Of a stretch of 64,000 bases of DNA, positions 8,953 through 26,222 are shown one piece after another. Source of the stretch: Methanobacteriota archaeon (GTDB lineage: Archaea; Thermoplasmatota; Poseidoniia; Poseidoniales; Thalassarchaeaceae); contig JAERSV010000029.1 of NCBI GenBank assembly GCA_016845345.1, forward strand, positions 24,917-88,916. Direction: 5' to 3'. The stretch's first letter is position 1; the number at the start of each line of letters is the position of its first letter. The notes below the pieces were generated by a model. It did no database searches and was not told where the DNA came from. It was given only the letters and a program-made list of their open reading frames with translations. The position numbers and the translations under genes are program-made.

Positions 8953-9006
8953 CTCTCTCAGTTAAGCGCAACAGTCACCTGCTTTAATGGCTGTCAGCAA
9001 CATTGT

Positions 9007-11940
9007 TCAATTTTTGACACGGATAAATTTTAACAAAAATTTTCTAAATTCTTCTATCCAAAAGACAGATGAAGCAATTAAGCAAACTACAACCCAATCT
9101 GTCCATTCTAACGGAATCGTTGACAAGAAACTACCTATTGTAATACCAATGATTGGCACTAAAACAAAAGAACTTTGAACAATTGAGACCAGTAAAACAA
9201 GGCTTATTGCGAAAGAGGCACTAATGAACATATTTTGGAAGATTCCAAGTTCAAACGCAGATTTGTCAATACTTCTACTATTTACAACATTGAAAAGTTG
9301 GAACATAATAAACGTTGCAAAAGCAATTGTTCTAGCGTATTCAAACTTTGATTGAGCATGATTATCCCATGTCTCTACATCACAATTCCCATCCTCCAAG
9401 AAAAATTCTGGTGAAGTTTCTATATCGACTCCTTGGCATGCATCGCCAGAAATTAGCCCCCCACCAGCAAGTGAGAATATTGCTAAGGTTCCTAGAACCA
9501 TCACCACACCAAGGAAACCAATTACCCGTTTATCCATGACATTTGGTAAGGGTTCAGATAAGGCTCTAGGAGGTTCATTCATCACGTCACCGTGGCGTTT
9601 TTCAATACCTAAAGCTAGAGCAGGTGGCCCATCCATTAAAATGTTGATGACAAGTAACTGAGTTGCAGTCATTGGTAATTTCCAACCTAAAATCAAAGTG
9701 GCGATAATAATTAGTAAAACCGCCGCCACATTTGTTGAAATTTGATATCTGACGAAATTCCTAATGTTTAGGTAAATTTTTCGCCCTTCTTCAATAGAAC
9801 CAACAATTGATGAAAAGTCATCATCTTTCAATACCATATCCGCAGCATCTCTAGCGACATCTGTTCCAGCAATTCCCATTGCGATTCCTATATTCGCGCG
9901 AGATAACGCGGGCGCGTCGTTATCCCCATCACCTGTCATGGCAACGACGTGTCCGATTGATTGTAATCTAGTAACAATCCTTAATTTTTGGTCTGGTGTA
10001 ACCCGTGAAAACATCACAACTTTGTCCAGTTTGGAATCTAATTCTTCATCAGATAAATCTTGTAATTGCTTCCCAGTAAGGAATTCTGAATCATCTTTGA
10101 TAATTCCTATCTCATCACCGATAGCCATCGCAGTCATTTGTTGATCGCCGGTAATCATCATTACTCTGACTCCAGCAGCATCACACATTGAAATTGCATT
10201 GGCAACCTCTTTTCTAGGAGGGTCCATTATGCCAATTAAACCCAAGAAAATCAAACCTGATTCAACAGAGTCAACATCTTCCATATCCTCTTCGCCACTT
10301 AATGGACGAGCAGTCAATGCAATTACTCTCAGGGCTTGTGTGGCCATTTGTAGATTAACATCACCTATTCTATTCCGATGACCATCGCCAATCGGGATTA
10401 CCCGACCATCTTCAACGACATGGCTAATTCTTGAGAGATAAGGTCCTATCGCACCCTTAGAAAATACCCAGCGTTCACCTTCATACTCATGAATCGTTGT
10501 CATTCTTTTCCTTTCTCTGTCGAAAGTATATTCTCTGAACCTAGGATGGTTTCTCCTGAAAGTGTCTACTGACTCCGTCATCTTCCAACCAAATACTGCT
10601 GAGGCTATATCTGTTGGATTGCCAATTCCTCTCCATTCTTTGTCAATTTTCCTAACATTACTATTTTGGCAAAGTAAAGAACACGCCATTGCTAATTTGA
10701 ATCCCTTTTGAACTTTTAATTCTGCGAAATCTTGTTCTGAAATTTCTTTATTTTCTATACTTAATTTGCCATGTGTTGGGTCAAATCCAGACCCTGAAAC
10801 AGAGTATAGTTCATCACCACAGAAAAATGAACGTACTGACATTTCATTACGCGTAAGCGTACCTGTTTTATCTGTGCAAATTATTGTTGCTGAGCCCAAG
10901 GTTTCAACTACTTTCATTCTTGAAACAATCGCATTTCTTGCTGACATATTTTGCATACCTATGGCTAATGTAATTACTAAAATAATTGGTAATCCCTCGG
11001 GCACAATTGCCACAAAGATGACTACTGCAATTATGAATTGGTCAGCGATAATTTCCTTCAGGGCTGTGCCCGTAACTCCATTCACTATTGAGAGGGTAAT
11101 AGTAAATCCAACGATAATTACAGCAGAAATAATAGCAATCATTGCGAGATATCTGCCTAATGAGCCTAATTTGATTTCAAGAGGTGTTTTTGGAGTTTCT
11201 ACTTCACTTAAACCGGTGGCAATGTCTCCAACTCTTGTCTCCATGCCGGTTTTTACTACGACTCCTAAACCACGTCCAGATGATACAACTGTTCCCATGA
11301 AAGCCATGTTAGACATTTCTTGCAGGATAGAATCTTCTTCAGAAGGTTTTATTTCTTTGTACACAACATTTGATTCCCCAGTTAATGAAGATTCATCTAT
11401 TGATAATTGATGTACTTCAAGCAATCTAATATCTGCTGGCACATTTAGGCCGTCTTCTAACCAGACGATGTCTCCTGGCACAACTTCTTCAATCGATAAA
11501 CGGTGTTCCATTCCATCGCGTAGTACAATACAATGGCAAACCAGTAATTTCTTCAGAGAATCCATTGCTCTCTCGGCTTTCGCCTCTTGAATATATGATA
11601 AAACCGCGTTTAAAGTTAAAGCAATACAAATAAAAATTGGAGTCCCTAGGTCTTCTCTGTCAGCAATAAATGCGATAATTGCTGCGGCTAACAACAAATA
11701 CACCATAGGATCTCTAAAGTGGTCTAACATTTTGAATAAAGGATGGCGGGGTTTTTTCCCTTCTAATTTATTTTCACCATAAGTTTCTCGCCGGTTGACT
11801 ACTTCTTCGGTTGAAAGACCATCAACTGTGGTATTCAAATTTGAAAATACATCATCCAATGGCATGGAATGCCAAAGTGGCTCTGTGGAGTCACTTTCTG
11901 ATTTTGTACTTGAATCTAGAGATGGCATCCGCTCGCCCAT
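9007..11940 (-). CDS. cation-transporting P-type ATPase (type II, Ca2+/cation-like)
   Basis: ICTDKTGTLT phosphorylation site, TGES, MITGDQ, MTGDGDNDAPAL hinge, and 10 TM-like segments. First in-frame ATG at 11940; the track start at 11949 is GTG. Confidence 0.9.
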   Translation of the reverse strand: MGERMPSLDSSTKSESDSTEPLWHSMPLDDVFSNLNTTVDGLSTEEVVNRRETYGENKLEGKKPRHPLFKMLDHFRDPMVYLLLAAAIIAFIADREDLGTPIFICIALTLNAVLSYIQEAKAERAMDSLKKLLVCHCIVLRDGMEHRLSIEEVVPGDIVWLEDGLNVPADIRLLEVHQLSIDESSLTGESNVVYKEIKPSEEDSILQEMSNMAFMGTVVSSGRGLGVVVKTGMETRVGDIATGLSEVETPKTPLEIKLGSLGRYLAMIAIISAVIIVGFTITLSIVNGVTGTALKEIIADQFIIAVVIFVAIVPEGLPIILVITLAIGMQNMSARNAIVSRMKVVETLGSATIICTDKTGTLTRNEMSVRSFFCGDELYSVSGSGFDPTHGKLSIENKEISEQDFAELKVQKGFKLAMACSLLCQNSNVRKIDKEWRGIGNPTDIASAVFGWKMTESVDTFRRNHPRFREYTFDRERKRMTTIHEYEGERWVFSKGAIGPYLSRISHVVEDGRVIPIGDGHRNRIGDVNLQMATQALRVIALTARPLSGEEDMEDVDSVESGLIFLGLIGIMDPPRKEVANAISMCDAAGVRVMMITGDQQMTAMAIGDEIGIIKDDSEFLTGKQLQDLSDEELDSKLDKVVMFSRVTPDQKLRIVTRLQSIGHVVAMTGDGDNDAPALSRANIGIAMGIAGTDVARDAADMVLKDDDFSSIVGSIEEGRKIYLNIRNFVRYQISTNVAAVLLIIIATLILGWKLPMTATQLLVINILMDGPPALALGIEKRHGDVMNEPPRALSEPLPNVMDKRVIGFLGVVMVLGTLAIFSLAGGGLISGDACQGVDIETSPEFFLEDGNCDVETWDNHAQSKFEYARTIAFATFIMFQLFNVVNSRSIDKSAFELGIFQNMFISASFAISLVLLVSIVQSSFVLVPIIGITIGSFLSTIPLEWTDWVVVCLIASSVFWIEEFRKFLLKFIRVKN

Positions 11941-18431: not shown

Positions 18432-19677
18432 CTCTTGCTTCTGATAATTTGTTGTCAATTACTTTTGCCATAGATAAATTATCCTTAAGGTCGATTATTG
18501 CACCTTTTGCATCAACCCAAAATGCTCTAACTGGGCTATCTTTTACATGTTCTAAGTGATTAGCAATTACGGCACCTAATCCGTTATTTTGTAATGATTT
18601 TTGAGCTGATTCAATTAATTCATTCTTAGAAAATCCAGATTCTAATTTGAATCCTATTTTCATATCGTTCTTACATGATTCACTAATGATGTCAATATGT
18701 TTGTCTGACTTTTGTAATTCAATGGAGATATTATCTTTTCCGGATTTAATTTTTTCAGCAGTTGGATTTACTACTGTGTAGTCAAGAACTGCAGCAGAGA
18801 ATATCCATGTGTCCGGTGGATTATCACTTTGGGAGATATTCAAGAGTTCAGAAAGCATTGATTCAGGATCCTTACAATCCCTAATATCTGCATGGTTCAG
18901 GAGGGAACTTGTAGTCACAACTCCTTTCAATATAATTAATTCATGCCCCATTCTATAGAGATAATCAGCAATGTCAAAACCTGTTTGACCGCTTGAAGTA
19001 TTCTGAACCCACCTAACAGAATCAATTGGACTGCGAGTTGCTCCTAAAGTTAATGCAACCCGCCTTCTGTTTGAGCGGTTTTTGTTGATTATATTTGACA
19101 GTAAACCTACAATTTGCACAACATCTGGTTGTTTACGCCTACCTTCTTGTTCTTCACCCCAAAACACATGATGTCCAAATTTTCCTAATTCTCCACATAG
19201 GTCCTCTGTTACAATATCCTCAGATAGTGAGTTGTGCATACTTGGAACAAAGAGCATTGGTAATTTGCGGCCACGCGCAGCAGTAAGCGCCATTTGCATC
19301 GGTGTATCTAGAATGCCATGAATATGGCAACCGATTGTATGTCTTGTGGCAGGGCATACCAAAACCGCATCCACCAAGTCAAGTTGAGCCATATCAGAAT
19401 CCCAATCAGTGACGACTTGAGACTGGCTAGCCCATTCAATTGCTAAAGGAGAAATAATCTCTTGGGCTGAATGAGTCATGACGACTGTGATTTGTGCTCC
19501 ATGACGTCGTAATTCCCTAAGCAATCTAACACTATCGACAACTGCAATTCCACCACTAATGGCGACTAAAATGTGTTTATCCTCTAAAGAGTCTGATGCA
19601 ACATCGACACCGATGTCACTTGTATCACTCATTATTTGGTGGGGTTTGGTTGTCTCCTTTACGGCTATCGGTTCCAT
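18424..19677 (-). CDS. coaBC: bifunctional phosphopantothenoylcysteine decarboxylase / phosphopantothenate-cysteine ligase (CoaBC)
   Basis: Flavoprotein N-domain ILVAISGGIAVVDSVRLLRELRRHGAQITVVMT. C-terminal DFP domain (LGATRSPIDSVRWVQNTSSGQTG, SAAVLDY). Start uncertain: ATG 19677 or 19632. Confidence 0.85.
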   Translation of the reverse strand: MEPIAVKETTKPHQIMSDTSDIGVDVASDSLEDKHILVAISGGIAVVDSVRLLRELRRHGAQITVVMTHSAQEIISPLAIEWASQSQVVTDWDSDMAQLDLVDAVLVCPATRHTIGCHIHGILDTPMQMALTAARGRKLPMLFVPSMHNSLSEDIVTEDLCGELGKFGHHVFWGEEQEGRRKQPDVVQIVGLLSNIINKNRSNRRRVALTLGATRSPIDSVRWVQNTSSGQTGFDIADYLYRMGHELIILKGVVTTSSLLNHADIRDCKDPESMLSELLNISQSDNPPDTWIFSAAVLDYTVVNPTAEKIKSGKDNISIELQKSDKHIDIISESCKNDMKIGFKLESGFSKNELIESAQKSLQNNGLGAVIANHLEHVKDSPVRAFWVDAKGAIIDLKDNLSMAKVIDNKLSEARDD

Positions 19678-19710
19678 CAAACTGAATTAGTTTGTCTAAT
19701 TGGACAGGGT

Positions 19711-20301
19711 ATGGAGAAGGACCTCGCCACAATACAGCGAGTACATCGCAGTATGTCTAGCACACTTTTGTGGTTGACTCTCTTGTTTTTCTTTTTGTTA
19801 ATATCATTCTCTTTGGGATTAGATGGGACCGTTTTACAAATTGGTACCTTCGCATCAATTCTTGTATTAGCAGCTGGAATGAGTATTTATTATGGCTTTT
19901 CAAGAAGAAAAATTTGGGCATATAGACTAGCCATCGTACATTGGTTATTCCTCATTCTAATCTGTTCTTTGATTACCCTAATAGATTTGATAGCAGGTAT
20001 TCAAGGCAGTATCATGTCAGCCATAATGGCAATAATGTTGATTTTTATTATCGTTGGAATGGTCAAAAGATTCACTACTTTTTCAAATCCGATGTTTATG
20101 GCATGGTATATTGGTCAGTCATCCAACGTTCTCGCTTCCTCACAATTGCAAACAAATGAAATGATGGCTGCTTGCCCTCATTGCTTGTCTATTCTCGCTG
20201 TAAAACCACTCGAATTAAGTGGCTCAGATTTATGCCCTAATTGTGGGGAGAAACTAGTTTCTGACGAAGTGGTTGCTAAATTCTATAATGAAGAGGAATA
20301 A
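19711..20301 (+). CDS. membrane protein with C-terminal zinc ribbon (hypothetical)
   Basis: ATG at 19711 (MEKDLATIQ...). 4-5 TM helices, then CPHCLS...CPNCGEKL. Confidence 0.55.
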   Translation: MEKDLATIQRVHRSMSSTLLWLTLLFFFLLISFSLGLDGTVLQIGTFASILVLAAGMSIYYGFSRRKIWAYRLAIVHWLFLILICSLITLIDLIAGIQGSIMSAIMAIMLIFIIVGMVKRFTTFSNPMFMAWYIGQSSNVLASSQLQTNEMMAACPHCLSILAVKPLELSGSDLCPNCGEKLVSDEVVAKFYNEEE

Positions 20302-20306
20302 CACAT

Positions 20307-21329
20307 CTACTCTGAGATAGTTAGGTTCTTCCAGTACTCTTCAGGTACTTCTTGGGATAATCTTAGTGCGCCCATTGCCCCTAATCTCACAGGGTCTTCT
20401 ACGATGTGTACAGTGATACCACCTAAGTCTGCTAGCCTTTCTTCAATTGAAGCGCCTAAACCCCTGATACCAGAACCACCACCAGCTAGAATGATGTTTT
20501 GACGGAATCCATCATGATACTCTGGATTTGACTCGGCAATGAGTGATTTCAAATTGTCAACAATTGGGTTGATAATTGATTCACATGCTGAAGAAATACA
20601 ATCAGTGATATCTAGAGACATTGCCTTCCCATCAATTGAGAAGTCAACCACAACGGGGTCCTTAGGTGGCGAAGTATGAGTGAATGAGAATTGTTCTTTC
20701 CACCGTCGAGCCATATCCTTGGTGATTTGTGCTCCAACATACTTTCGCTGGACGGCTTCAATAAGTGCCGCATCAATTGCGTCTCCTGCCTGGTTAATGT
20801 GCAATTGGTCTTCTGGGCGCGGTATCGTACCATATACTCGGCAGATATCTGTTGTCCCTGCTCCAATATCCACAACCATTGTATGGTCAAGCATGTCAAG
20901 AGCATAAGCAACTGCAAAAGGTTCTGAAATAATCATACAGGCGTTGACAGTACCAGCAGCAGCATCGAAAATTGCAGTTTTATCAACGTGACTAGCCTCG
21001 GCTGGAGCGCCGATTACCGCAACAACTCTGTCATATTCTTCAGGGTCTGCCAAATTCATCATATGATTGATGAAATGAGCAATGAATTTTTTATCTTCAG
21101 GTGTATCCTTGATTACACCGTGTTCCAGAGGGCGATAAAGGTTCAAGGCTAGCCTGTTTTTCAAGGCCTCTTCTCCGAATAAAACATCCCTGCGAAGGAA
21201 GTTTTTTGCTATGGAATCCTTTGGTGTACCTATCACAGTTAGCACTTGTTCTTCGTGTTTATCATTAGAAACCATGACCGACCTAAACGTACCTAAGTCA
21301 ACACCGATGTAAAGAGTCTCGTTCGCCAT
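20307..21329 (-). CDS. actin-like ATPase, MamK-type
   Basis: Actin-fold phosphate-1 GVDLGTFRS, phosphate-2 VVDIGAGTTDICRVYGTIPRPEDQ, adenosine motif ILAGGGSGIRGL, and C-terminus GALRLSQEVPEEYWKNL. Collinear with my recollection of MamK. ATG at 21329 is preceded by GGTGA; alternative ATG at 21347. Confidence 0.8.
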   Translation of the reverse strand: MANETLYIGVDLGTFRSVMVSNDKHEEQVLTVIGTPKDSIAKNFLRRDVLFGEEALKNRLALNLYRPLEHGVIKDTPEDKKFIAHFINHMMNLADPEEYDRVVAVIGAPAEASHVDKTAIFDAAAGTVNACMIISEPFAVAYALDMLDHTMVVDIGAGTTDICRVYGTIPRPEDQLHINQAGDAIDAALIEAVQRKYVGAQITKDMARRWKEQFSFTHTSPPKDPVVVDFSIDGKAMSLDITDCISSACESIINPIVDNLKSLIAESNPEYHDGFRQNIILAGGGSGIRGLGASIEERLADLGGITVHIVEDPVRLGAMGALRLSQEVPEEYWKNLTISE

Positions 21330-21406
21330 TGTATTCACCGTTATCATTGCTCCGAAGGGGACGGTATATCAATAATCCCTAACATTGGTTTGCAAAGTCT
21401 ATTGAT

Positions 21407-22456
21407 TTATAGCCACATCTCACAGTCATCGCAATACCAAGCGCTGTGTTGAGTGTACAATGGAGCACCATTTCCACAACCAGTGCATTCTTTTGTTACA
21501 CCCTCTCCAAATAGTGTAATAACAATTTCAATGTGCCTCTCCTCTGTGATACCTAAGTGCTGTCTCATGGCCCACAGTAGTTGATCTTCACTCGGCGTAA
21601 TCACACCATCCGACAACACTAATTCAACCGCTGTTTGATAATCAGATTCTATCCCCACTGCAGTGGGGTCAAGTACGACTCCATCTTTTTCAGCGATTAT
21701 GTCTTTTCCACCTGGGTCATCGATAAAAAGCACCAATGCAGAAGGATTCAACTTGTTGTTTCTTAATTCAAAAGATACTACATTTTCATCAGTGTTAGCG
21801 AAAACAAATTTACTTGATTTATTGATAACTGAAGCGATGTTTCTAGCGGTATCAGCAACCGTCCTTCCGCGTCGCCAACCAGTATTAGAATCTTCATTTA
21901 ACAAATAAAATTCTGTGCCCAAGCCAGGATATTCTATTCTAACTTCCTCCCCACCATCAAAATCATTACTCATAAGAGTTAATTTGCCAACCTCTGTTTG
22001 TAGAATGTTGTCATCCTCATCAAAACTAATCATCAAAGGTGTTCTCTCTTCTTCTGCGACATTGAAATGACCTTGCATGCCTTCAATCCATTTATCTTGT
22101 AATCGAGATAAGCCTTGTTCTTGTTCCGCAGTCAAATTTTCGTCAATACCTAGTACTCTAGATAGACCTGAACCAGATTCCATTTCTTGTTTAAATTGCT
22201 CAATCAATTTTGACTCGGTTTGCACTGATTCGTGACGTCTTTTTGATGTCGAAAATTTACTATTGGGGTCGGCCCATTCATATTGACACCTGTCACATGA
22301 AAGGTAGCCTGTAATAGAAGAATTATTACTTCCACCACCACACCGTGGGCAATCTCCATCCTCAACAGCTGTCAAATTTTCTTTGGCTTCACCTAAGCCT
22401 TTAGTCCCCTTGACGGGCTTCTTTCGGAACGCCATCAAAACCTTGTGAGACCTCAT
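21407..22456 (-). CDS. hypothetical protein with N- and C-terminal zinc ribbons
   Basis: CPRCGG...CDRCQYEW near the N-terminus and CTGCGNG...CDDCEMWL at the C-terminus, with about 250 aa unrecognised between. Start ATG at 22456, or 22435 giving MAFRKKPVK. Confidence 0.6.
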   Translation of the reverse strand: MRSHKVLMAFRKKPVKGTKGLGEAKENLTAVEDGDCPRCGGGSNNSSITGYLSCDRCQYEWADPNSKFSTSKRRHESVQTESKLIEQFKQEMESGSGLSRVLGIDENLTAEQEQGLSRLQDKWIEGMQGHFNVAEEERTPLMISFDEDDNILQTEVGKLTLMSNDFDGGEEVRIEYPGLGTEFYLLNEDSNTGWRRGRTVADTARNIASVINKSSKFVFANTDENVVSFELRNNKLNPSALVLFIDDPGGKDIIAEKDGVVLDPTAVGIESDYQTAVELVLSDGVITPSEDQLLWAMRQHLGITEERHIEIVITLFGEGVTKECTGCGNGAPLYTQHSAWYCDDCEMWL

Positions 22457-22513
22457 GGGTCATATGGGTTGCGATAATCACCTCTCCAAGAAGAGAAATC
22501 TAAACCGGCGCGG

Positions 22514-22543
22514 TTATCAATAGGGCGCGAGTCGGCCCGCTTG
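22514..22543 (+). promoter_or_regulatory. kptA promoter with GC box variant, predicted leaderless; shared divergent region
   Basis: TTATCAATAGGGCGCGAGTCGGCCCGCTTGATG. On the opposite strand the same AT-rich box is followed by CCGCGCCGG toward the zinc-ribbon/actin gene pair. Confidence 0.4.
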
Positions 22544-23227
22544 ATGCTACGAGAGTGTGAACTACACGGTACCTTTGAAGGGGAACTTTGCCCAGCCTGC
22601 AACAGCGAAGGAAAATTCGTTATGAATGGACGAGAGCGAGACCAAATCGCCCGAAGAATGGCTGGTATTCTGCGTCATTTCCCTGAAAAATTTGATTTAG
22701 AAATGGACATTAATGGATGGGTCAGTATTCGAGAATTATCTAATGCAATTTCCCGTAAAGATAAGCGTAAGCACTGGTTGAGAGACCGACATATACAAGC
22801 AATTGTAGATACTGACCCTAAGGGTCGTTACGAAATTCGTGGAGGGAATGTGAGAGCAACTTATGCACACACAGTGGAAATAGAACTCGACTTGCCATCA
22901 GATAATATTCCTGAATTATTGTATTATCCAGTTTCAAGAGACGAACTTGATATTCACCTTGAGGGAGGAATTCATCCTGGTGGAAGAAAGTGGGTTCATC
23001 TTTCTAAAACCATTACAAATGCAGCAAATGCTGGCGCTGTTCACCATTCCCGCCCTGCAATCATAGAAATAGATATCATTCAGATGCAAGCATCTGGGAA
23101 CACAGTTTTTCACGCAGGAACCACTGTTTACCTTACCGAGATTGTCGATGCTCAGTTCTGTTCACAAGTTGCTTATGATGATACAGAATATTCACTCATG
23201 CTAGAAGAATGGGGAGAAGAAGAGTAA
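22544..23227 (+). CDS. kptA: RNA 2'-phosphotransferase (Tpt1/KptA) with N-terminal zinc-ribbon-like extension
   Basis: IARRMAGILRHFPEKFDLEMDINGWVSIRELS, GRYEIRGGNVRATYAHT and HLSKT match the KptA family. N-terminal CELHG...CPAC. Confidence 0.85.
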   Translation: MLRECELHGTFEGELCPACNSEGKFVMNGRERDQIARRMAGILRHFPEKFDLEMDINGWVSIRELSNAISRKDKRKHWLRDRHIQAIVDTDPKGRYEIRGGNVRATYAHTVEIELDLPSDNIPELLYYPVSRDELDIHLEGGIHPGGRKWVHLSKTITNAANAGAVHHSRPAIIEIDIIQMQASGNTVFHAGTTVYLTEIVDAQFCSQVAYDDTEYSLMLEEWGEEE

Positions 23228-23575
23228 TTACTTTCTTTTGTATCCACACACTTGGCAAAAGCTAAATTCGCCATTTTGCGGTTCGTCACACTCTGGACAA
23301 ACCTCTGAGTTTGTGATACTTGGTGCCTCGGTATTATCAGAAGATGAAATTAACCTGACTGATGATGATTCTTCAAAAATTACAGATTCAACAAGTTGCC
23401 TTTCTTCAACAGATTTATTGAACTGAATTATCTCAAATAACGCAGTTTCTAATTTAATAATTCTCTGTTTCCTTTGTTCAACATTTGGGATGTCTTCTGC
23501 TTCAACCAACTCTTCTTGTAGATATCTCTGCAGTTGATCTACTGTTACATCATCAGCCATTATTGCCCGCACCAT
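23228..23575 (-). CDS. small acidic protein with C-terminal zinc ribbon (hypothetical)
   Basis: CPECDE...CQVCGYKRK at the C-terminus. Its stop abuts the kptA stop with no spacer. Start ATG at 23575 or 23560; the track start is GTG. Confidence 0.5.
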   Translation of the reverse strand: MVRAIMADDVTVDQLQRYLQEELVEAEDIPNVEQRKQRIIKLETALFEIIQFNKSVEERQLVESVIFEESSSVRLISSSDNTEAPSITNSEVCPECDEPQNGEFSFCQVCGYKRK

Positions 23576-23658
23576 ATCGCCCCTAATCAACACGGCGGCT
23601 CAAAAGAATTCTAATTACAATAGCAATTGACTTCATGGAGTTCCTTTTCGGGATAAAC

Positions 23659-24474
23659 ATGCAAGGGCCCATCATCATCAAATTTGGAGGCGGGCTTATC
23701 ACGGTTAAGGACAAATTATGTACTCCAAAAATAGCCATAATCCATAATCTCGCCAAATCTGTTCAACATTTAGTAAACATAGATAAACGGGTAATTATTG
23801 TTCATGGCGCTGGTAGTTTTGGCCATTTAAGGGCTAAATCTTGGAAACTTCATGAAGGAAGGACAAATGAAGGTTTACCAAAAGAAGATGATTTGTCTAC
23901 CCAAGATGAAGCTGTAGAATCCGTCCGACAAGATATGCAACATCTTAATCAACTGGTTGTTGAAGAATTCAATAAACTAGGGATTGAAACGGTTACTCAC
24001 CCACCCCATGAATGGGCTACTGGCACAGGTTCAAACTTTTCTGGGGAACTACACCAGTTCAATTTAGATGGAGAAAAGGTCCACATCACATATGGAGACG
24101 TGGTTGATTGCAATAATGAGAAGGAATTTGGTATTCTAAGCGGGGATGATATTTGCTATAGACTAGCAACAGAACTTAAGGCGACCCACATGATTTTCGC
24201 TATGGGTGGTGCACCTGGTGTAATGTCATCACCACCATCAGAACCATCTTCCGAACTAATTCCAATTTGGTCTAAATATAAACAATTTGAGGCAATTCAT
24301 CAATCAGAAATTGATGTCACAGGGGGAATACACCTCAAACTAACCGTAGCAGATAAAATCTCAAAAATAGTTCCTATGGTGTGGATTGTTGATGGAGAGT
24401 GCCCAGAACGTATTGTTCAAGTTGTCTTAAATAACGAATCATATGGTACAAGGATAATCCCTGAATCTCCGTAG
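23659..24474 (+). CDS. isopentenyl phosphate kinase
   Basis: Amino-acid-kinase fold: IIIKFGGGLITVKD, VIIVHGAGSFGH, ITYGDVV. ATG at 23659 (MQGPIIIKFGG). Confidence 0.8.
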   Translation: MQGPIIIKFGGGLITVKDKLCTPKIAIIHNLAKSVQHLVNIDKRVIIVHGAGSFGHLRAKSWKLHEGRTNEGLPKEDDLSTQDEAVESVRQDMQHLNQLVVEEFNKLGIETVTHPPHEWATGTGSNFSGELHQFNLDGEKVHITYGDVVDCNNEKEFGILSGDDICYRLATELKATHMIFAMGGAPGVMSSPPSEPSSELIPIWSKYKQFEAIHQSEIDVTGGIHLKLTVADKISKIVPMVWIVDGECPERIVQVVLNNESYGTRIIPESP

Positions 24475-24533
24475 GAGATTGAACAATCTCATTAAAGAGG
24501 CAAAACCCCTCACAAAAATTAGTTGGTGAGGCG

Positions 24534-26222
24534 ATGAGCGAGAACAGTCCATTCCTTGGTGAACAATATGATGAATCACAAAGCGAAATGATGAGTGAGA
24601 TGGTAATCTTAGTTGATGAAAATGATCAACAAATTGGCTCCATGTCTAAGGTAGACAGCCATCTGGGTGAAGGTGCGCTTCACCGGGCTTTTAGTGTATT
24701 ATTGTTCAATTCTTCACAAAAAATGTTGATTCAAAAAAGAGCAGATACCAAGATTACATTCCCATCGGTGTGGGCTAACTCCTGTTGTAGTCATCCTCTT
24801 GACGTCGAGGGTGAAACAGAAATGGAGGATGACCTTGGAGTCAAGCGCGCTGCCATTCGCAAGATGGAGCAAGAACTTGGAATTTCTTCGGACCAGTTGC
24901 CGATTGATGATTTTCATCTGATTACAAGAATGCATTATAGAGCACGAGCTGATGAGAAATGGATTGAACATGAATTAGACCATATTCTGCTAATTCAAGC
25001 AGATGTTGATTTGAATATTAATCCAAACGAAATCTCTGAAATTCGTTGGGTTAATCAAACGCAGATAGAGGATTTAATCTCAAATTCACCTGATAACGGT
25101 GAAATTATTGCCCCTTGGTTTAATGAAATATACTCCAGATATGCGTCTCAATGGTGGGGTCATCTTGATGAGGTGAGTTCTCTTCAAGACAATGTGGTTC
25201 ACCATATTGGGGATGTTGAGACCAGCGAACACTCATCCTTACTTGATGCACTCAAAGGGCATGCAACGGAAGTTGAAAGCAGAATAATTACCGCACTTGA
25301 AAAATCAAACCATGAACGTTTGAAGAAGGCAATGATGCATCTCATCGAAGGAGGTGGAAAGCGCCTTCGTGCAATACTACCATGGCTTGTCGCTGATGCT
25401 TGTGGTGGTTCATCTGATTCATTGTATGACTTGGGAGCAGCCATAGAAATCATCCATAATTTCACCCTCATTCACGACGATATCATGGATAATGATGAAA
25501 TGAGGAGGGGAAGAGATGCTGTACACATAGCATATGATATGCCCACCGCAATCAACGCAGGAGATGCAATGTTAGCAGTTTCTTTTGAATTATTGAGTGA
25601 GGCAGAAGAAATTTCGTCAGACAAATTCCGTTCTTTAGTTTCAATAATTGGTAAGATGGTACGCAAGGTATCTGAAGGCCAACAATTGGACATGGATTTT
25701 GAGAATAGAGATTTTGTTAGTGAAAAAGAATACTTGACTATGATCTCCGGAAAAACGGCTGCCATGTTCACAACTTGTGCAAGAACCGGTGCAATTCTTT
25801 CAGGTGCTACTCCCGATGTCATTGAGAATCTTGCTGATTGGGGTGAAAACCTCGGACTTTGCTTTCAATTAATGGATGATTTAATCGATGCCACGGGTGA
25901 TAGTGAAACTCTTGGGAAACCTGCTTGTAGTGATGTAGTAGAAGGGAAAAGAACACTGATTGCGATTCATGCACTGGGATTAGAACCGAGTAATCTTCCA
26001 ACATTCCACGAAGTATTTTCCTCTAGAAATGAAGACACACCGCGGGAAACACTTGATGAAGTTCTCAGTGAATTACAGGCTTCCGGCTCAATTGATTATG
26101 CTAAGGACAGAGCAATGAGCTTCCATCAAAAGGCACATGCCTGCCTAGACAAATTACCAGATTCACCAGCCTTGTCAATATTAAGACAATTAACAGACTG
26201 GCAACTCATCAGAATTTCCTGA
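24534..26222 (+). CDS. fusion protein: type 1 isopentenyl-diphosphate isomerase (N) + geranylgeranyl/polyprenyl diphosphate synthase (C)
   Basis: N-half Nudix-type IDI: HRAFSVLLFNSSQKMLIQKRADTKITFPSVWANSCCSHP, WIEHELDH. C-half trans-prenyltransferase: first Asp-rich motif LIHDDIMDNDEMRRGR, second FQLMDDLID. One uninterrupted 562-aa ORF. Confidence 0.85.
   Translation: MSENSPFLGEQYDESQSEMMSEMVILVDENDQQIGSMSKVDSHLGEGALHRAFSVLLFNSSQKMLIQKRADTKITFPSVWANSCCSHPLDVEGETEMEDDLGVKRAAIRKMEQELGISSDQLPIDDFHLITRMHYRARADEKWIEHELDHILLIQADVDLNINPNEISEIRWVNQTQIEDLISNSPDNGEIIAPWFNEIYSRYASQWWGHLDEVSSLQDNVVHHIGDVETSEHSSLLDALKGHATEVESRIITALEKSNHERLKKAMMHLIEGGGKRLRAILPWLVADACGGSSDSLYDLGAAIEIIHNFTLIHDDIMDNDEMRRGRDAVHIAYDMPTAINAGDAMLAVSFELLSEAEEISSDKFRSLVSIIGKMVRKVSEGQQLDMDFENRDFVSEKEYLTMISGKTAAMFTTCARTGAILSGATPDVIENLADWGENLGLCFQLMDDLIDATGDSETLGKPACSDVVEGKRTLIAIHALGLEPSNLPTFHEVFSSRNEDTPRETLDEVLSELQASGSIDYAKDRAMSFHQKAHACLDKLPDSPALSILRQLTDWQLIRIS

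Follow-up and report, generated by a model that had tools for sequence, protein, structure and literature searches.

The 64-kb stretch of Thalassarchaeaceae DNA analysed here (contig JAERSV010000029.1, positions 24,917–88,916; hereafter the window, with a GC content of ~42%) encodes an actin-like ATPase, here called actin-1, directly downstream of a protein with a zinc ribbon at each end, here called the partner. A first-pass annotation made from the sequence had proposed that the two form an undescribed archaeal filament system in which the zinc-ribbon protein is the adaptor. Our analysis places actin-1 securely, by sequence and fold, within the MamK-like superfamily of actins and finds the two genes side by side in every informative locus of the order Poseidoniales (Marine Group II, MGII). 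By analogy with its characterised relatives actin-1 probably polymerises, and the evidence leans slightly toward the two proteins working together. Of the adaptor proposal, the conserved pairing stands; contact between the two proteins is suggested by gene adjacency, with no fusion among the matches and no co-evolution above controls. Both open reading frames lie where they had been drawn, 59 nt apart, and the locus is organised as follows.

21407–22456, minus strand: partner protein with two zinc ribbons, soluble and acidic; 349 aa from M1.
21330–21406, minus strand: spacer between the partner and actin-1 genes; 77 nt to M7, 59 nt to M1.
21363–21372, minus strand: TATA-like box of actin-1, TTGATATACC, conserved in the spacer.
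21335–21339, minus strand: ribosome-binding-like element GGTGA in the spacer.
20307–21347, minus strand: mechanical open reading frame of actin-1; 346 aa from M1.
20307–21329, minus strand: actin-1, actin-like ATPase (MamK/BeeR superfamily); 340 aa when counted from M7, the conserved start.

The synteny scan used one genome per GTDB species and covered the best 80 of 283 genomes' loci, from both MGII families, MGIIa (Poseidoniaceae) and MGIIb (Thalassarchaeaceae). Two loci were uninformative, their contigs ending directly after the partner gene. In the remaining 78/78 the partner and actin-1 genes are adjacent and on the same strand with the partner upstream, separated by 48–154 nt (median 97, a rough start-codon estimate), and the expectation that the zinc-ribbon gene would keep its place beside the actin gene in related archaea is thereby borne out. 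This junction is the sole one in the region that is never broken. The partner gene adjoins kptA in just 18/73 loci because thiolase and DUF35-like genes have been inserted there in MGIIa, the inserted Poseidoniaceae thiolase being an acetoacetyl-CoA thiolase (e.g. locus L040, 5965–7934); kptA therefore lies outside the module. At the other end, actin-1 and the gene of a membrane zinc-ribbon protein (TM_Znr221) are adjacent in 36/44 loci, and the latter gene is missing from its expected place in 19 further loci. This membrane protein (19636–20301) was considered as a third component and rejected, as at breaks it travels with CoaBC (41/42) and not with actin-1. The adjacency of partner and actin-1 is strong but not conclusive evidence of shared function.

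Among the matches listed, the loci closest to the window genes come from metagenome-assembled genomes (MAGs) labelled Thalassarchaeaceae. One locus of the scan (L027) lies on contig CAXQWT010000099.1 of a MAG labelled Salipiger bermudensis, a bacterium; this contig carries the full Poseidoniales partner–actin–kptA–IPK–IDI region and is evidently mis-binned.

The actin-fold motifs quoted for actin-1 in the first-pass annotation are present, and its collinearity with MamK is confirmed: residues 8–342 align with residues 8–341 of the solved MamK at 39% identity (E = 3e-76). BeeR (E = 4e-46) and MreB (E = 8e-17) are the next solved structures matched by sequence. The best NCBIfam model is that of MamK (NF040964), with 366.2 bits and E = 1e-109 at a curated cutoff of 400. 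Scores are lower for BeeR (223 bits, cutoff 530), for the MreB models PRK13927 (101 bits, cutoff 293) and TIGR00904 (88 bits, cutoff 366), for salactin (59 bits, cutoff 400) and for ParM (16.8 bits, cutoff 417); the salactin, EutJ, Hsp70, FtsA, ParM and PilM scores are all marginal. In Pfam, the Volactin model reaches 31.6 bits (cutoff 35) and the top match is MreB_Mbl (1.6e-28), which heads the list because the Pfam scan returned no MamK model. The earlier statement that actin-1 does not resemble MreB was too strong in view of the MreB_Mbl match; what holds is that MamK and BeeR are far closer.

The AlphaFold2 model of actin-1 has a predicted template modelling score (pTM) of 0.74, with low confidence in subdomain IB. 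In a Foldseek search with this model, MamK (5LJV, 5LJW) is the best match, with a template modelling (TM) score of 0.80–0.83 and E = 1e-27, and is followed by BeeR (TM 0.75), MreB (~0.7) and eukaryotic actins. The top matches are all polymerising actins, so that by sequence and by fold actin-1 sides with MamK, BeeR and MreB and not with the sugar kinases or Hsp70, as the filament proposal supposed. The phosphate-1, phosphate-2 and adenosine motifs are conserved, and E142 and D160 align with MamK E143 and D161, which we take to be ATPase residues. Actin-1 is the most conserved protein of its neighbourhood, with 75–96% identity across the order. Between MGIIa and MGIIb the identities are ~75% for actin-1, ~57% for the partner, 50% for KptA, 45% for IPK and 54% for IDI-GGPPS. 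This order-wide constraint, the strongest in the neighbourhood, indicates a central cellular role for actin-1.

Within the superfamily, actin-1 is not an orthologous MamK. It scores below the curated cutoff, falls in a separate clade, has no magnetosome genes nearby and has an Asp at the position of MamK A278. The NCBIfam MamK model gives comparable scores to other Poseidoniales actins (361–375 bits), to a homolog from the archaeal group ANME-2 (371) and to one from Verrucomicrobiota (371), all below 400; relatives from Nitrospira (425 bits) and Gemmatimonadota (412 bits) pass the cutoff. In the annotations of JGI and of the NCBI pipeline PGAP, the two Poseidoniales actins, like the ANME-2 homologs, carry the name ‘rod shape-determining protein MreB’. 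Because the scores of the MreB models lie far short of the cutoffs, this naming is a systematic mis-annotation.

A search of a representative database with actin-1 returned 1560 relatives at E ≤ 1e-3, including 155 at E ≤ 1e-30. In a rough neighbour-joining tree (93 sequences, 327 columns, 200 bootstraps) the actin-1 proteins of Poseidoniales form a clade of their own with 100% support, sister to their own paralog, actin-2, with 94% support; MamK of AMB-1 and BeeR fall in clades apart from these. Actin-2 (P0250), the second MamK-like protein of the order, is 334–337 aa long and 44–45% identical to actin-1, and its copies are 84–100% identical among its own best 120 matches. Its gene invariably precedes, on the same strand, that of a 423–427-aa acidic coiled-coil protein (loci L081–L084, 6001–8381; L086–L087, 5001–7423). 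When the profile of the partner was compared by hhalign with the 426-aa protein next to actin-2, the probability was 0.1%. JGI labels this coiled-coil neighbour ‘chromosome segregation ATPase’, and the actin-2 pair is flanked by a peptidase S8 gene and PcrB, with a rhodopsin gene in the vicinity. Actin-2 is absent from the 64-kb window, and among the matches listed no genome shared by actin-1 and actin-2 was found via locus-tag prefixes.

Further MamK-like actins occur beside, or fused to, coiled-coil proteins. A well-supported metagenomic clade (P0242–P0255; L088), which the tree places as the nearest outgroup of both Poseidoniales actins with 54% support, joins the MamK-like actin domain to a long N-terminal coiled coil and a low-complexity region rich in K, E, S and P (881, 854, 523, 787, 1194, 779, 771 and 705 aa, and others). 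Long relatives with a C-terminal actin domain (520–1232 aa) were considered as partner–actin fusions and rejected, their N-termini being coiled-coil and low-complexity sequence devoid of zinc ribbons. In ANME-2/Methanosarcinales a 358-aa MamK-like actin is followed by a 1940-aa protein that is a near-entirely repetitive coiled coil (L085, 6001–12925), and further homologs of actin-1 occur in Nitrospira, Gemmatimonadota and Verrucomicrobiota. Desulfovibrio magneticus MamK and Mad28 have been shown experimentally to work with coiled-coil Mad proteins (PMC12748827), and the accessory factors listed for bacterial actins include MamJ, ParR, AlfB and Alp7R (PMC13170167). Taken with actin-2, the ANME-2 actin and the fusions, the partners of MamK and Mad28 therefore show that the combination of a MamK-like actin with an adjacent lineage-specific partner recurs; to this pattern the zinc-ribbon protein adds a new type of partner. 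One MamK-like actin (P0256, 42% identical) lies in a chemotaxis cluster with the order CheA/CheW, CheC, CheD, actin, unknown, CheC (L089, 1–4507), a setting that hints at a connection of an actin-like filament with chemosensory arrays.

The partner has homologs in 297 clusters at 90% identity, with identities of 53–93%, and a relative is encoded in 283 species genomes. The best 80 loci and all named protein matches belong to Poseidoniales; among the matches listed, the family is seen only in this order. The 120 of the 297 clusters that are listed contain no Pfam domain bar a few matches to Zn_ribbon_IS1595. The window protein itself yields nothing significant in Pfam, NCBIfam, PADLOC or PHROGs; its profile finds just an L37Ae ribbon in the PDB (E = 0.025), and a Foldseek search of the PDB gives no credible whole-chain match, in keeping with its original description as a protein of unknown family. 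It is soluble and acidic, with an isoelectric point of 4.56 and no transmembrane or hydrophobic segment. Five regions can be distinguished from conservation and from the predicted local distance difference test (pLDDT) of the model.

22286–22351, minus strand: N-terminal zinc ribbon (C36, C39, C54, C57), with invariant Cys.
22007–22126, minus strand: conserved low-confidence segment, residues 111–150 (...LQDKWIEGMQGHFNVAEEERTPLMISFDEDDN), from conservation compared with pLDDT.
21671–22000, minus strand: central α/β domain, residues ~153–262, pLDDT 73–87.
21509–21658, minus strand: helical region, residues ~267–316, TerB/ENT-like by its motif and weak matches.
21422–21487, minus strand: C-terminal zinc ribbon (C324, C327, C342, C345), with invariant Cys and pLDDT 87–89.

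All eight cysteines are invariant in 30 aligned homologs, which substantiates the assignment of a CxxC...CxxC ribbon to each end of the protein. In both ribbons the two CxxC pairs stand 14–16 residues apart and are modelled in β-hairpins (pLDDT 81–89). The sole basic patch of the protein precedes the N-terminal ribbon, the first 20 aa from M8 having a net charge of +4. This ribbon gives sub-threshold matches to Zn_ribbon_IS1595 in 24/30 members, and its match to the profile of ribosomal L37Ae noted above is weak. Residues 111–150 combine some of the highest conservation in the partner (0.81–0.91 across 66 orthologs) with its lowest pLDDT (39–55), and are a candidate for a segment that may fold only upon binding.

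The central domain contains the invariant motifs NxFDGGEExRxEYPGxGTEF, GWRxGR and DDPGG. Its matches in BFVD are phage tail and structural-protein domains (E = 2e-5 to 1e-3; root-mean-square deviation 3.5–5 Å over 110–125 columns); this likeness reflects a generic fold of the assembly type and does not point to a particular function. The helical region carries the invariant motif DG(I/V)I(T/S)PSEDQ. Residues ~276–309 within it give sub-threshold matches to TerB in 22/30 members and to ENT in 17/30, and Foldseek matches the ENT structure 1utu with a probability of 0.95. The TerB matches are weak: PF05099 scores 17.3 bits on the window protein (gathering threshold 24.4), and the best match in the family (E = 1e-4) covers the last ~35 model positions alone.

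The spacer between the two genes contains conserved signals. A TATA-like element is found ~38 nt upstream of the actin ATG in 78/78 loci, as TTGATATACC in MGIIb and as TTCATAAGG/AAG in MGIIa, and is followed by a ribosome-binding-like element, GGYGA. The reservation originally attached to the pair, that the spacer contains its own TATA-like GATATACC, is therefore justified: the element lies at 21363–21372 and is conserved upstream of actin in all 78 loci. On these signals actin-1 is predicted to be an at least partly independent transcription unit. Since the promoter element sits merely ~20 nt upstream of M1, translation of actin-1 almost certainly starts at M7 (ATG 21329; 340 aa); its orthologs begin MA.(D/E)(T/V)LYIG and are 340–341 aa long (66 intact orthologous pairs compared). 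The partner probably starts at M8 in most lineages (ATG 22435; 342 aa).

Similar TATA-type elements stand upstream of many window genes, and TTGATA(T)ACCG, considered as a regulatory motif shared by the pair, was rejected because it equals the genome's ordinary TATA-type consensus. The commonness of the element therefore marks it as an ordinary promoter sequence and not a special shared motif. In the 84-nt region between the partner gene and kptA, TTGATAACCG at 22511–22520 is a candidate promoter element of the partner. A palindrome, TTCTATAGAA or a close variant, lies 5–45 nt past the partner stop codon and upstream of the actin promoter in nearly all Poseidoniaceae loci (L023–L080; e.g. L028, ~9003–9012) and is absent from MGIIb. 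A regulator might bind it; alternatively, it might be associated with a terminator or act as another TATA-like box.

In the explanation that we favour, actin-1 would bind and hydrolyse ATP and form cytoplasmic filaments like those of its characterised relatives, and the partner would act as a dedicated accessory factor of the filament. The two proteins would presumably be in physical contact, with residues 111–150 of the partner docking on actin-1. The zinc ribbons, together with the basic N-terminus and the assembly-type domain at the centre, would then engage cargo or form a scaffold, the likeliest cargo perhaps being nucleic acid. A strong promoter of its own would drive actin-1, whose transcription presumably exceeds that of the partner. 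A narrower version, in which the basic L37Ae-like ribbon of the partner tethers nucleic acid, likeliest the chromosome, to filaments of actin-1 and in which MGII has two paralogous MamK-like filament systems, each with a dedicated partner, appears unlikely.

Several observations weigh against a joint function. No domain assignment of the partner reaches a curated threshold, and its model is of moderate confidence (mean pLDDT 67.8, pTM 0.36); the backbone of the rough neighbour-joining tree is unresolved. No fused partner–actin protein occurs among the matches, and in a mirror-tree analysis of five proteins from 46 loci the partial correlation between actin and partner (0.33) does not exceed the controls (0.64 for actin and KptA). 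The conserved TATA-like and ribosome-binding elements mean that co-transcription is not required. Other junctions in the region are also stable (KptA–Znr121, 56/57; CoaBC–TM_Znr221, 41/42), and as the genes concerned are functionally unrelated, adjacency here does not always reflect shared function. Under a rival explanation, gene order is simply conserved in streamlined genomes, the partner having a job of its own such as RNA binding, DNA binding or metal sensing and actin-1 acting by itself or with partners whose genes lie elsewhere. The resemblance of the partner ribbon to the nucleic-acid-binding ribbons of the L37Ae/IS1595 type would suit such a role. We nevertheless hold this explanation to be doubtful, though quite possible: the partner/actin-1 junction is the only one unbroken in 78/78 loci, with breakpoints immediately on both sides of the pair, the two genes share a strand and a short gap and are conserved order-wide, and other MamK-like actins likewise adjoin a lineage-specific partner.

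If the two proteins do work together, they could do so in chromosomal DNA segregation of the ParMRC type, with the partner coupling a centromere-like site to the filaments as ParR does. The combination of a basic N-terminus and an L37Ae/IS1595-type ribbon in an otherwise acidic protein would fit this idea, the closest PHROG of actin-1 is ‘partition protein’ (a weak match, E = 2.7e-10), and actin-like proteins that work with an adaptor able to bind DNA form a recognised class (PMC13170167). We consider it unlikely, as no iterons or tandem repeats of a centromere-like kind occur in or around the locus, the ParM model gives actin-1 only 16.8 of the 417 bits of its cutoff, and neither Pfam nor the PDB reveals any similarity of the partner to families of the ParR or helix-turn-helix type. 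The gene order also differs, that of ParMRC being parM–parR; here the adaptor gene lies upstream and the actin has its own promoter. That actin-1 is instead an archaeal MreB, a rod-shape determinant, is very improbable. The MreB_Mbl match and the source annotations speak for it, but the MreB models fall far short of their cutoffs (101/293 and 88/366 bits) where MamK gives 366 bits, MamK and BeeR are much closer by sequence and fold, and no MreC, MreD or RodZ is found among the genes annotated at ~9–33 kb of the window. Actin-1 may still help to shape or organise the cell without being an MreB ortholog, which would be compatible with a joint function of the pair.

The remaining alternative is that actin-1 adopts the actin fold without polymerising, and is a monomeric or dimeric ATPase that forms an enzyme or chaperone pair with the partner. 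Here the residue at the A278 position counts against the filament explanation. The A278D substitution abolishes polymerisation of MamK (title of PDB 5LJW); in actin-1 this position is naturally occupied by an Asp, D279 (M1 numbering; window 20511–20513), which is conserved in 61/66 orthologs. A filament interface or architecture of the MamK type can therefore not be assumed for actin-1. The equivalent position varies superfamily-wide, however, being Ala or Ser in the clade that holds true MamK and Asp or Glu in many MamK-like proteins, including one (P0262) that passes the MamK cutoff. The close characterised relatives polymerise, namely MamK, BeeR (PMC11929497), a MamK-like protein of Saltatorellus (bioRxiv 10.1101/817700) and MreB. 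The Hsp70 and EutJ matches are marginal, and the very high conservation of actin-1 would be typical of filament formers. A non-polymerising actin-1 thus seems quite unlikely, and filament formation with the partner as accessory factor is the explanation that we retain.

Beyond the pair, the adjoining features in the direction of kptA are as follows.

22457–22540, no strand assigned: divergent intergenic region between the partner gene and kptA; 84 nt.
22541–23227, plus strand: kptA (Pfam PTS_2-RNA, 1.9e-26), divergent from the partner gene.

The pair is thus transcribed divergently from kptA, as had been noted, and the accompanying remark that no magnetosome genes lie nearby also holds: every gene annotated at ~9–33 kb of the window has a housekeeping role, and none is a magnetosome gene. 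They comprise a P-type ATPase, an OPT transporter, transketolase, ProRS, CoaBC, KptA, IPK, IDI-GGPPS, EF-2, ribosomal protein S7 and UbiD. An isoprenoid/mevalonate cluster lies upstream (23635–26222) and consists of an IPK-like amino-acid kinase and a 562-aa fusion of IDI and GGPP synthase. Between this cluster and kptA, a small acidic protein (23228–23593, minus strand) with a C-terminal zinc ribbon and a weak DZR match is the third zinc-ribbon protein within 4 kb, and is kept beside kptA in 56/57 loci. The membrane protein at 19636–20301 (plus strand) is a multi-pass protein with a C-terminal CxxC...CxxC zinc ribbon; its gene is convergent with actin-1, and the two stop codons are just 5 nt apart.

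Marine Group II (Poseidoniales) archaea are among the most abundant planktonic archaea of the surface ocean, and to our knowledge none has been cultured. A literature search found no description of an MGII actin homolog or of the partner family, although the main review of archaeal actins (PMC10955848) may mention one, and the label ‘undescribed’ given to the pair agrees with this result. The search also found nothing on the cell organisation of Poseidoniales. In a survey of archaeal hypothetical proteins, 199 families were reported to be consistently linked to Poseidoniales; the actin and partner genes are not discussed there (PMC9258230). If the favoured explanation is correct, the pair would offer a first handle on MGII cell biology, and a zinc-ribbon type of partner, distinct from the coiled-coil, acidic-repeat and ribbon-helix-helix types, would join the short list of prokaryotic actin accessory factors. 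Should the tethering version apply, the partner would represent a new class of actin-binding adaptor, in an actin-based machine for genome segregation or cell organisation. A protein family without known relatives that always neighbours actin-1 is a concrete and cheap target, both proteins being soluble and ~340 aa long. The MreB naming of these genes by public pipelines is corrected by the present assignment.

Among known systems, MamK (5LJV, 5LJW, 5JYG; NF040964) is the closest to actin-1. The two proteins align end to end at 39% identity (TM 0.80–0.83), are similar in length without large insertions, and share the equivalents of E143 and D161. Actin-1 differs in its score (366 bits, cutoff 400), its separate clade and its Asp at the A278 position; it is also archaeal, has no magnetosome genes nearby and is accompanied by a zinc-ribbon protein in place of MamJ, MamY or McaAB. 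BeeR (8R2N), a bacterial actin that forms three-stranded tubes, belongs to the same MamK-like superfamily and is the second-closest solved relative (E = 4e-46, TM 0.75). It is characterised by a disordered N-terminal extension of 30–50 aa (PMC11929497), which actin-1, beginning 5 residues before its first β-strand, lacks; the identity between them is 35%, and the score of 223 bits is far from the BeeR cutoff of 530. Salactin and volactin are likewise archaeal actin homologs, and salactin has been reported to be closest to the MamK family (PMC10746226), yet both are distant from actin-1 (salactin 59 of 400 bits, Volactin 31.6 of 35).

The MamK-like actins of organisms that are not magnetotactic (Saltatorellota, ANME-2, Nitrospira, Gemmatimonadota and Verrucomicrobiota) resemble actin-1 in their 41–48% identity and in lying outside magnetosome clusters. 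One of them, a Saltatorellota protein, was seen in filamentous structures when produced in heterologous hosts (bioRxiv 10.1101/817700). The Poseidoniales proteins are set apart from these by their own clade (100% support) and by a zinc-ribbon partner in place of a coiled-coil protein or fusion. Compared with ParM-type systems, the MGII pair is chromosomal and order-wide and not plasmid-borne, and a search for centromere repeats gave none. None of ParR, AlfB, Alp7R, MamJ and the arcadins shows detectable similarity to the partner. In its layout, however, the pair matches ParM–ParR, AlfA–AlfB, Alp7A–Alp7R, MamK–MamJ and crenactin–arcadins, in all of which a rapidly evolving, lineage-specific partner stands beside a conserved actin (PMC13170167, PMC5173319).

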